4,579 nt of DNA from a virus (taxonomy: Duplodnaviria; Heunggongvirae; Uroviricota; Caudoviricetes), in the IMG/VR virus record IMGVR_UViG_2636416166_000007. The stretch is one strand, 5' to 3'. The notes under the pieces are model-generated. The model was not told the origin of the DNA and ran no database searches. It worked only from the letters and a program-made list of their open reading frames with translations. A program made the translations under genes and the position numbers. Below, in pieces: positions 2,835 to 4,579 of this stretch; the stretch's first letter is position 1, and each line of letters opens with the position of its first letter.

Positions 2835-4229
2835 CTACTCCCCCCGTTCCGGCAATCTAAAGTTAATCTTTTCCACATTAACAATATGGTGATTAATCCT
2901 GTCGATATCGACGGAGCTTTGCCCTCTTTCATTCACCGCATGAACATTTGCAAGAGATAGTAGTGTTTCTTTTTTCGCCATAAAGACGCCGCGAACGTCT
3001 TTGCGCATGTCGAAGTTCATGCTCAATGCTGGTCCAACAGAGGATTCCTGCATCACATTAATATTACGCATAAAAAGGTGTTGTGGTTTGTTGTGTAACT
3101 CCAGCGACGCACGCTTCATCTCAATGTTAGTCAGCGCCACACAGGAGACAGCATTCCCGGCGGAGATTTGGATGCCGCGCAATTTATAAGCAAGATGGGT
3201 GTTATCTAGTTGAATATTATTCACTCGGAAATTTTGCGGTATCGAGAGATATTTGCCTTTAATTACCCCATAGCCGATTAACATCCCGGCGCTATTAATC
3301 ATTTCAATATTATCAATCACGAAATTGTCACAACCGTAAATAGCAACTGTCGCGTTATCAATACCTGCTTTCTTACTGAAATCCGGCGTGATATTGCGGG
3401 CTTTGATATTACGAATAACAAAATGTTTACCATTTTCAACATGGATCAGTTGCCGACAATCCGATCCCGTGATATTCGCCACGACAAAGTTTTTCACTGC
3501 CTGGTCTTCCGGATAATTATTATCGTAGGTACTTCCCGCAAGACCTATGCCGATGCCCCAGTTGATTTTGCCGTTGGTACAGTTGATGCGCTCAATAACG
3601 TGGTCAGATATCAAAATATCACTGTCGTTAATCGCCACGTTCCATTCAATGGCATCGCCCTGTAAGTCGCTGAACTTACAATTGGTGATGTTGGCACCGA
3701 TAATCTGGTTATGAAATCCCTGGCGTAAGATGGCGTAATTAGCGTGGCTAACGGTCAGGTTATCGATGGTCAGGTTGCGCATGACCTGTTTGTTTTTGCC
3801 GCCGATATAAATCTGCGTTACCGGGCCAAAGCCGCTCATAGTCAGCCCTTTGATGGTGCAGTCGGAACCACGCACATCCAGGGTGATGTTATGCATACTG
3901 CCGCCCTCCTCCCCTGTCACCTGGCTGCCGTCCTGTAAAACAAATCGCCCTCTGCCGTTGCCGCGCAGGCTTCCAAGGATGTGTAACGTTTTACCTGCAG
4001 GAATGAAGATGCCGGTGTTGATATTGTCGCAAACCAATCCGCCAGGCACGACGACCGTTTGCCCTTCGCTGAAGGCTTGTTTAAATGAGGCGATCCAGTC
4101 GTGAGGGTTGTAGTCGTTAATGTTAACGCTTTGTCGGGCGGGAAGTGCGCGAGCGAAAGGGGTATGGAGGAAGGCAAGCGCCGAGCTTGCCGTCAGGAAG
4201 GTGCGTCGGGAGAGTTTTTTAAATGGCAT
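2835..4229 (-). CDS. wcaM: Colanic acid cluster protein WcaM (464 aa), predicted Tat-exported right-handed beta-helix protein
   Basis: 464-aa ORF with ATG at 4227..4229 and TAG stop at 2835..2837. The N-terminus [28 protein letters not shown] has a twin-arginine motif (SRRTFLT), a hydrophobic core and an AxA cleavage site. The mature part has reiterated asparagine-containing segments ([72 protein letters not shown]) typical of parallel beta-helix repeats. Recognisable as WcaM, the last gene of the colanic acid cluster. Confidence 0.93.
4146..4229 (-). other. Predicted twin-arginine (Tat) signal peptide of WcaM (about 28 aa)
   Basis: SRRTFLT matches the Tat consensus S/T-R-R-x-F-L-K, with the RR codons at 4203..4208. 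It is followed by a hydrophobic stretch (ASSALAFL) and FARA, with the predicted cleavage after Ala28. The cleavage position is an inference. Confidence 0.6.
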
Positions 4230-4234
4230 GCGTT

Positions 4235-4239
4235 CTCCT
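4235..4239 (-). promoter_or_regulatory. Shine-Dalgarno (AGGAG) for wcaM
   Basis: Minus strand reads TAG-AGGAG-AACGC-ATG: AGGAG immediately follows the wcaL TAG stop (4240..4242) and lies 5 nt upstream of the wcaM ATG. Confidence 0.55.
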
Positions 4240-4579
4240 CTATAAAGCCTGCAACAAGCTGGCGAGTTCTCGATTAATCACCTGCTGGTTAAAATCGTGT
4301 TCGACTTTTTCGCGCGCACGTTTGACAACCGTAGTAAGTTCGTCGGTGTCCAGTTGGCTAAACGCCGCCAGTCGTTGCGCCAGTGCGCGAGCATCGTTCT
4401 CAGGCACCAGCCAGCCGGATTTATCGGCCTCCACCAGTTCCGGTATTCCGCTATGCAGAGTAGAAACCACCGGAATGCCGACCGCCATCGCTTCCATCAG
4501 CGCCACCGGAATGCCTTCCATATCGCCGTCAGCACCCGTTACCGATGGCAACAGAAAGACATCCGCATCGTCGAGCATC
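4240..4579 (-). CDS. wcaL: Colanic acid glycosyltransferase WcaL (GT4 / GT-B family), C-terminal ~112 codons; gene continues beyond the window end
   Basis: Open frame from the window edge to the TAG stop at 4240..4242, ending ...[11 protein letters not shown]. The sequence [27 protein letters not shown] is typical of the C-terminal sugar-donor domain of GT4 glycosyltransferases. Recognisable as WcaL, and its position directly upstream of wcaM fits the known cluster order. Confidence 0.85.

Follow-up and report, generated by a model that had tools for sequence, protein, structure and literature searches.

The window analyzed here, a stretch of 4,579 nucleotides from the IMG/VR virus record IMGVR_UViG_2636416166_000007 (Caudoviricetes), carries on its minus strand wcaM (2835-4229), the final gene of the wca/cps operon for colanic acid, and the kinship of its product with a phage colanic acid hydrolase led us to the reading that WcaM probably acts as a periplasmic colanic acid endoglycanase. 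The open reading frame (ORF) runs from an ATG at 4229 to a stop codon at 2835-2837 and encodes 464 amino acids (aa). Its assignment follows from the ORF list, the E. coli annotation and two NCBIfam equivalog models, both named 'colanic acid biosynthesis protein WcaM': NF007517 (1020 bits, cut-off 808) and TIGR04004 (968 bits, cut-off 795). A preliminary description of this DNA had given exactly these coordinates and had left out the strand. Pfam family PF27800, itself named WcaM, is the precomputed assignment on all WcaM homologs; it is newer than the local copy of Pfam-A, in which WcaM matched no family at E<=0.1. A Shine-Dalgarno sequence, GAGGAG, can be read at 4235-4240 (minus), 5 nt before the wcaM ATG. 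It shares one base with the wcaL stop codon TAG (4240-4242), whose final G opens the GAGGAG, and the ATG lies 10 nt past that stop. The 3' end of wcaL itself (4240-4578, minus), the gene directly upstream in the operon, encodes a GT4 glycosyltransferase and covers profile positions 295-406 of 406 of TIGR04005. The boundary of the colanic acid cluster on the downstream side is marked by galF (1767-2660, minus; TIGR01105, 689 bits). The spacer between galF and rfbB (310-1395, minus) holds a JUMPstart RNA element (1470-1508, minus; Rfam RF01707, 60 bits), which contains the ops sequence GGCGGTAG at 1474-1481 and, being placed before the O-antigen genes, is expected there as their signal for RfaH-dependent antitermination. 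The mechanically called galF ORF (1767-2672, minus) starts from a GTG that precedes the family-model start by four codons; as the TIGR01105 alignment begins at residue 5 of this GTG ORF, the true start is likely the ATG at 2660. The resulting order wcaL-wcaM-galF-JUMPstart-rfbB, all on the minus strand, agrees with the published cluster description; it sets wcaM between wcaL and galF and bears out its earlier placement as the terminal gene of the cluster.

Because wcaM is widespread in E. coli, is preceded by a ribosome-binding site and shows a low dN/dS, it is a genuine gene and not a chance ORF. An approximately full-length, single copy is present in 4628 of 5426 complete E. coli genomes, among which the best DNA identity amounts to only 97.1-97.4%. 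The identical protein has nevertheless been recorded in E. coli and in Shigella boydii 4444-74, and the main E. coli cluster representative differs from it at 9 positions; the window is thus probably derived from Shigella or from a lineage that has been sampled less. Against other genera, dN/dS is approximately 0.08, a value that is only indicative, because over half of the ortholog pairs show saturated dS. In dozens of species of the Enterobacteriaceae, wcaM keeps its place at the end of the wca genes, nearly all of the roughly 200 WcaM relatives in 185,579 species genomes belong to this family, and a published measurement found that the wcaM transcript tracks the transcript of the leading operon gene, wza.

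The protein begins with a predicted signal peptide (residues 1-28; 4146-4229, minus) that carries the twin-arginine motif S7-R8-R9-T10-F11-L12-T13 (4191-4211, minus) and FARA at residues 25-28, with cleavage after ARA predicted from the AxA rule and a mature chain beginning LPA. The signal fits the S/T-R-R-x-F-L consensus of the twin-arginine translocation (Tat) pathway and combines a weakly hydrophobic h-region (mean Kyte-Doolittle 1.04) with a basic c-region ending in ARA, the assessment being made from motif, hydrophobicity and AxA site. Two arginines occur within the first 25 residues in 80/80 homologs from 80 species genomes, while the surrounding signal varies widely, and R8 and R9 are invariant in 81/81 sequences. 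WcaM is moreover contained, with an identical signal peptide, in published lists of E. coli and Salmonella Tat substrates. Together, motif, signal regions, conservation and these lists confirm the Tat signal (SRRTFLT, then FARA) read in the preliminary description. Across the wider family, an N-terminal arginine pair was found in 14 of 21 short representatives (380-520 aa) and in only 2 of 49 long tailspike-like members, one of which has a genuine signal. Two low-GC Bacteroidota-like homologs bear lipoprotein-type signals, not Tat signals; such sequences (…FLASC and …LFTNSC) replace the twin arginine in the gene at 9316-10617 of locus L144 and in protein P0187 (low GC, 32%). Judging from these signals, export appears to be general among the cellular members of the WcaM family, and since the Bacteroidota-like homologs use lipoprotein signals, the Tat route is best seen as a proteobacterial, lineage-bound habit and not as a requirement of the fold. 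For WcaM itself, the signal points to the periplasm.

The mature protein (residues 29-464; 2838-4145, minus) comprises 436 aa with a calculated mass of 47.9 kDa and a pI of 8.15. Repeated xFxIxNIxxxN segments are directly readable in its sequence, asparagine accounts for 10.3% of its residues, and cysteines occupy positions 67, 124, 184, 217, 258, 300 and 363. The seven cysteines and numerous asparagine segments pointed out earlier are thus correctly counted for this sequence, while the seventh cysteine proved to be a strain peculiarity: C363 (codon at 3141-3143, minus) is lineage-specific, and because phenylalanine stands at this position in the common E. coli form, as it does in 79/81 homologs, the usual E. 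coli WcaM has six cysteines. One further database protein, P0051 (761 aa), shares 96% identity with WcaM across 81% of the query and also contains the WcaJ-type domains PF13727 and PF02397; it is probably a mis-assembly or a gene-calling fusion of wcaJ and wcaM fragments.

An AlphaFold model of WcaM, computed from 25 orthologs, reached a mean pLDDT of 78 and a pTM of 0.80 its low-confidence parts being confined to the signal peptide, some loops and the 19 C-terminal residues. Foldseek comparison against the PDB returned 6e0v_A, gp150 of phage Phi92, as the top match (TM 0.68, E=8.6e-9). The model superposes on solved beta-helix enzymes, so that at the level of structure prediction and fold comparison, both concordant, the right-handed parallel beta-helix (pectin-lyase-like) suspected from the sequence is confirmed for mature WcaM. 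The fold by itself cannot reveal the chemistry of the protein. GH28 structures match WcaM at the fold level only, and membership in GH28, the pectate lyases, PL6 or the AlgE-type enzymes was dropped, as neither Pfam-A (E<=0.1) nor the PDB profile search gave a sequence signal for any of them.

Searching all PDB sequences with a profile of WcaM orthologs identified Phi92 gp150 (6e0v/6e0w) at E=4.9e-27 and, up to E<=10, nothing besides gp150 and one match confined to the signal peptide. The homologous core comprises WcaM residues 165-352 (3174-3737, minus), which align to gp150 residues 360-556 with 33% identity in BLASTP (E=6e-27). In agreement with this, WcaM residues 86-460 align to positions 194-559 of 711 of the PHROG family phrog_6117, 'colanic acid degradation' (E=1.9e-52). 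WcaM-like tail proteins are encoded in 246 phage records, the hosts of which are almost all Enterobacteriaceae that produce colanic acid (Escherichia, Salmonella, Cronobacter, Klebsiella, Enterobacter or Kosakonia), and many of these proteins are annotated as colanic acid-degrading. According to PMC13450770 (citing Xu et al. 2025), gp150 hydrolyses the beta-1,4 glucose-fucose (Glc-Fuc) linkage of colanic acid. A separate colanic acid hydrolase, that of phage NST1, yields single repeat units of 1148 Da. The preliminary description had guessed at a colanic acid-processing function by analogy with other systems; the guess is supported here and now rests on direct sequence homology to a characterized colanic acid hydrolase. 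The same results bear on the alternative that WcaM modifies the polymer otherwise, by lyase chemistry at the glucuronic acid or by epimerization, and not by hydrolysis. We regard this as very improbable, given that gp150, the only protein detectable by sequence in the PDB profile search, is reported to hydrolyse the Glc-Fuc bond, and that WcaM matched no lyase or epimerase family of Pfam even at E<=0.1.

Comparison of the two proteins revealed a homologous beta-helix core, the best structural match in the PDB, the shared motifs GDAIE(W/L)N, NWGIGIG and HVE, and a tie to colanic acid on both sides. In contrast to WcaM, gp150 lacks a signal peptide, and its 804 aa include ~200 aa for virion attachment at the N-terminus and a ~170-aa domain at the C-terminus. 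As part of the virion, it attacks from the outside, whereas WcaM is cellular, exported and encoded in the operon, and colanic acid hydrolysis has been demonstrated for gp150 alone of the pair. The long relatives in general carry 80-235 extra N-terminal and 160-276 extra C-terminal residues, including a tail-fibre-type N-terminus and a common C-terminal domain of ~160 aa, and WcaM has neither of these. Similarity to several tailspikes starts at about WcaM residue 31, just past the predicted signal cleavage site. Because WcaM aligns only to the tailspike middle, the alignments identify it as a relative of the tailspike enzymatic module, placed behind an export signal, and not as a tailspike itself. 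Protein P0182 (605 aa) combines a Tat-type signal (SLSRRKFITG) and a WcaM-like core with a C-terminal domain of ~160 aa that is otherwise found in tailspikes only, and it may stand midway between the cellular forms and those of phages.

Several phage records, among them OR845744.1, MG065650.1 and OP562383.1, call for comment in their own right. The single phage record 60-80% identical to WcaM was dropped from the comparison, as it is an unannotated 1.7-kb fragment and probably bacterial DNA. A 1.7-kb record that bears the name Escherichia phage ECO95 1-6-1 resembles wcaM at its 5' end with 67% DNA identity; as the match takes in the signal-peptide region, this record looks like DNA of bacterial origin. 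Colanidase genes also occur in records labeled Campylobacter phage B15 and Acinetobacter phage, and because these genes are of coliphage type, the host labels are doubtful.

To locate candidate active-site residues, WcaM, gp150 and 18 divergent relatives were aligned (20 bacterial and phage sequences, 23-41% identity). Residues L168, Q170, G191, D192, N197, G225, G229, H263, V264, E265 and G321 were invariant in this alignment and E195, D202 and W224 nearly so, while D192, E195, N197, D202, W224, H263, E265 and Y298 were unchanged in 81 cellular homologs. Three motifs were delimited: G191-D192-A-I-E195-W-N197 (3639-3659, minus), in which D192 and E195 correspond to gp150 D387 and E390; the glycine-rich strand W224-G-I-G-I-G229 (3543-3560, minus); and H263-V264-E265 (3435-3443, minus), equivalent to gp150 H461-V462-E463. 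According to the strand order of the model, the segments GDAIEWN, NWGIGIG and LIHVE each occupy one of three consecutive rungs in a single sheet, the glycine-rich strand forming the rung between the two acidic motifs; the presumed stacking of D192, E195 and E265 is read from this strand order. D192 and E195 are proposed as candidate catalytic or substrate-binding carboxylates and E265 as a candidate catalytic carboxylate. In the model, the WGIGIG strand is probably the floor of a sugar-binding groove, which D192/E195 and E265, on motifs two rungs apart, would flank. A non-catalytic WcaM, that is, a periplasmic lectin or scaffold that binds colanic acid and guides or organizes the polymer, appears quite improbable in view of this conservation: the invariance of D192, E195, H263 and E265 in the 81 cellular homologs fits catalysis better than mere binding, and D192, H263 and E265 are invariant across all compared bacterial and phage members, including the active gp150.

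The gene surroundings of divergent cellular homologs point in the same direction. Profile scans of genomes and metagenomes for distant homologs were dominated by enterobacterial orthologs, the only useful divergent additions being L007, L011 and L144; in a set of 5.8 billion proteins, the profile search retrieved at least 8 proteins. The context sample is small, with five loci. All five homologs with readable surroundings lie in polysaccharide clusters (Wzx/Wzy-type), and in three of these a WcaD-family polymerase is encoded within a few genes of the WcaM-like gene. L002 contains Wzc, a hexapeptide acetyltransferase, a WcaD-family polymerase and glycosyltransferases, L003 an acetyltransferase, a WcaD-family polymerase, Wzx and an initiating transferase, and L004 Wzy, Wza and Wzc. 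In L007, from Sphingomonas, the WcaM-like protein has an RRR signal and is accompanied by GT2, GT4 and GT8 glycosyltransferases, a pyruvyl transferase and a WcaD-like polymerase. The low-GC locus L144 encodes a chain-length determinant, Wzx, sulfotransferases and glycosyltransferases, and the sulfotransferases suggest a sulfated polysaccharide as its substrate. Export signals were found in three of the five context homologs (P0272, L007 and L144) and in further divergent homologs; P0271 has no twin arginine, and P0174 was outside this signal check. Beyond the context analysis, the metagenomic cluster of L002 closes with a second PF27800 protein (14775-15369, running past the locus edge); it has 944 aa, is flanked by many bacterial Ig-like (Big) domains and may be a surface-displayed version of a WcaM-type enzyme. 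In addition, the WcaM-like gene adjoins a hexapeptide-repeat acetyltransferase gene in L002 (5366-6101), L003 (10987-11729) and L011 (1561-1974), with a tiny ORF of 35-42 aa between the two genes in two of these three loci, and the pair may form a conserved sub-module.

These surroundings also bear on the notion that wcaM is the decaying remnant of a phage tailspike with no part in colanic acid biology. The core that WcaM has in common with phage tail proteins speaks for such a remnant, whereas its fixed position as the last wca gene across species, the strong purifying selection, the invariant export signal, the co-transcription with the operon and the location of the divergent homologs, likewise inside polysaccharide clusters, all speak against decay. 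The conservation data effectively refute this idea, which we consider hardly credible.

Taken together, we favor the reading that WcaM cuts colanic acid in the periplasm as an endoglycanase, with a role resembling that of WceF of Pantoea stewartii, and judge it probable from sequence. After Tat-dependent export, WcaM would bind colanic acid along the groove of the helix and hydrolyse a backbone bond by means of carboxylates from GD192AIE195WN and H263VE265. By analogy with Phi92 gp150, the bond in question would be the beta-linked Glc-Fuc bond. WcaJ is known to initiate repeat units with glucose on the lipid carrier and WcaD to polymerize them; because WcaJ places glucose first, the Glc-Fuc bond should be the one by which the WcaD polymerase joins repeat units. 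In this way, WcaM may shorten chains or cap their length, or remove polymer from the periplasmic space, while colanic acid is exported through the Wzx/Wzy/Wza-Wzc system, as WceF presumably does for stewartan. We infer all of its catalytic activity, bond specificity, catalytic residues, periplasmic location and physiological role. The view of the preliminary description that the activity of WcaM has not been established agrees with the accessible literature, in which reviews either name WcaM without assigning it a function or leave it out. This literature, which leaves many subscription journals outside its coverage, contains no functional study of WcaM (as tailspike, depolymerase, hydrolase or in relation to mucoidy) and nothing that ties the protein to colanic acid degradation, tailspikes or WceF.

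A number of points weigh against this reading. No biochemical assay of WcaM is found in the accessible literature, and the conserved acidic residues are candidates for catalysis only. The model is of low confidence in two loops, 231-237 and 286-290, and beyond residue 446. In some tailspikes, the active site sits between subunits, and the N- and C-terminal tailspike domains absent from WcaM are possibly needed for trimerization. WceF is active on stewartan yet aggregates with it, and because it does so, a structural or binding role is conceivable for WcaM as well. Finally, Salmonella papers use ∆wcaM as a 'colanic acid-deficient' strain, and this deficiency, if accurate, suggests a need for WcaM in production that goes beyond trimming.

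The last point leads to the alternative that WcaM is required for production, either by severing newly made colanic acid from its reducing end, which is linked to undecaprenyl-diphosphate, or by passing the polymer from WcaD to Wza-Wzc; without WcaM, the polymer would remain lipid-linked and little of it would be exported. Consistent with this, the Salmonella mutants serve as colanic acid-deficient strains, WcaM-family genes stand beside WcaD-family polymerases in three of the five divergent clusters, gp150 cuts the Glc-Fuc bond, presumed to be made by the polymerase since WcaJ starts the units with glucose, and group 1 capsule loci, whose polymer is cell-attached, are devoid of wcaM. However, the polymer loss in ∆wcaM strains is only putative, WceF knock-outs still produce polymer that is merely longer, most Wzy-dependent systems manage without such an enzyme, and the co-occurrence of WcaM and WcaD amounts to five loci only. 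We therefore consider this alternative unlikely, though by no means negligible. In its boldest form, WcaM would be the missing release step itself, a WcaD-matched endoglycanase that cuts the Glc-Fuc bond, frees colanic acid from undecaprenyl-diphosphate and recycles the remaining stub, with the phage colanidases being captured copies of the host module. This version, which we hold to be distinctly unlikely, would explain why colanic acid is shed as slime while group 1 capsules, whose loci have no wcaM and do have wzi, remain attached.

The gene, its Tat signal and the lack of an assigned function are textbook knowledge, and the kinship of WcaM with phage colanic acid-degrading proteins is already implicit in phage annotations and in PHROGs. 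New in this work is the profile match of WcaM to the gp150 colanidase, in agreement with the top Foldseek and PHROG results. As wcaM is the sole gene of the classic 20-gene colanic acid operon without an assigned step, the assignment of the pathway would be completed if WcaM is indeed an endoglycanase of the phage colanidase family, with D192, E195 and E265 as candidate residues. The relationship further suggests an exchange of modules between host polysaccharide clusters and phage tail proteins. On the practical side, WcaM is a possible host enzyme for preparing colanic acid with a low molecular weight, and some caution is advised with strains in which ∆wcaM is equated with the absence of colanic acid, as they may hold an altered polymer rather than none.

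Among known systems, the cofactor-less E. coli Tat substrates SufI, AmiA and AmiC resemble WcaM in their S-R-R-x-F-L signal and periplasmic destination and are listed in the same published tables, while their mature domains are unrelated to it. AlgL, BcsZ, PslG and PelA follow a logic like that proposed for WcaM, being periplasmic or exported degrading enzymes that are encoded together with the synthesis genes; they are unrelated to it in fold and family, and most of them operate in synthase-dependent pathways and not in Wzx/Wzy ones. The best model for the mode of action of WcaM, by analogy, is WceF. It is encoded in the Wzx/Wzy-type stewartan cluster, bears a Tat signal, adopts a tailspike-like right-handed beta-helix and acts on the polymer of its own cluster, and its knock-out leads to longer, larger stewartan chains. 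With 736 aa, extra domains, a demonstrated trimer and a different polymer, WceF is nevertheless distinct from WcaM. The WcaM profile retrieved no WceF chain from all PDB chains at E<=10, and because no sequence relationship is detectable, the resemblance is one of analogy and not of family membership. WcaM does share with WceF the two features by which such a self-glycanase is recognized, its encoding in a biosynthetic cluster and an export signal. If our reading is correct, WcaM would be the second example, after WceF, of a Wzx/Wzy cluster that encodes a Tat-exported, tailspike-like enzyme directed against its own product.

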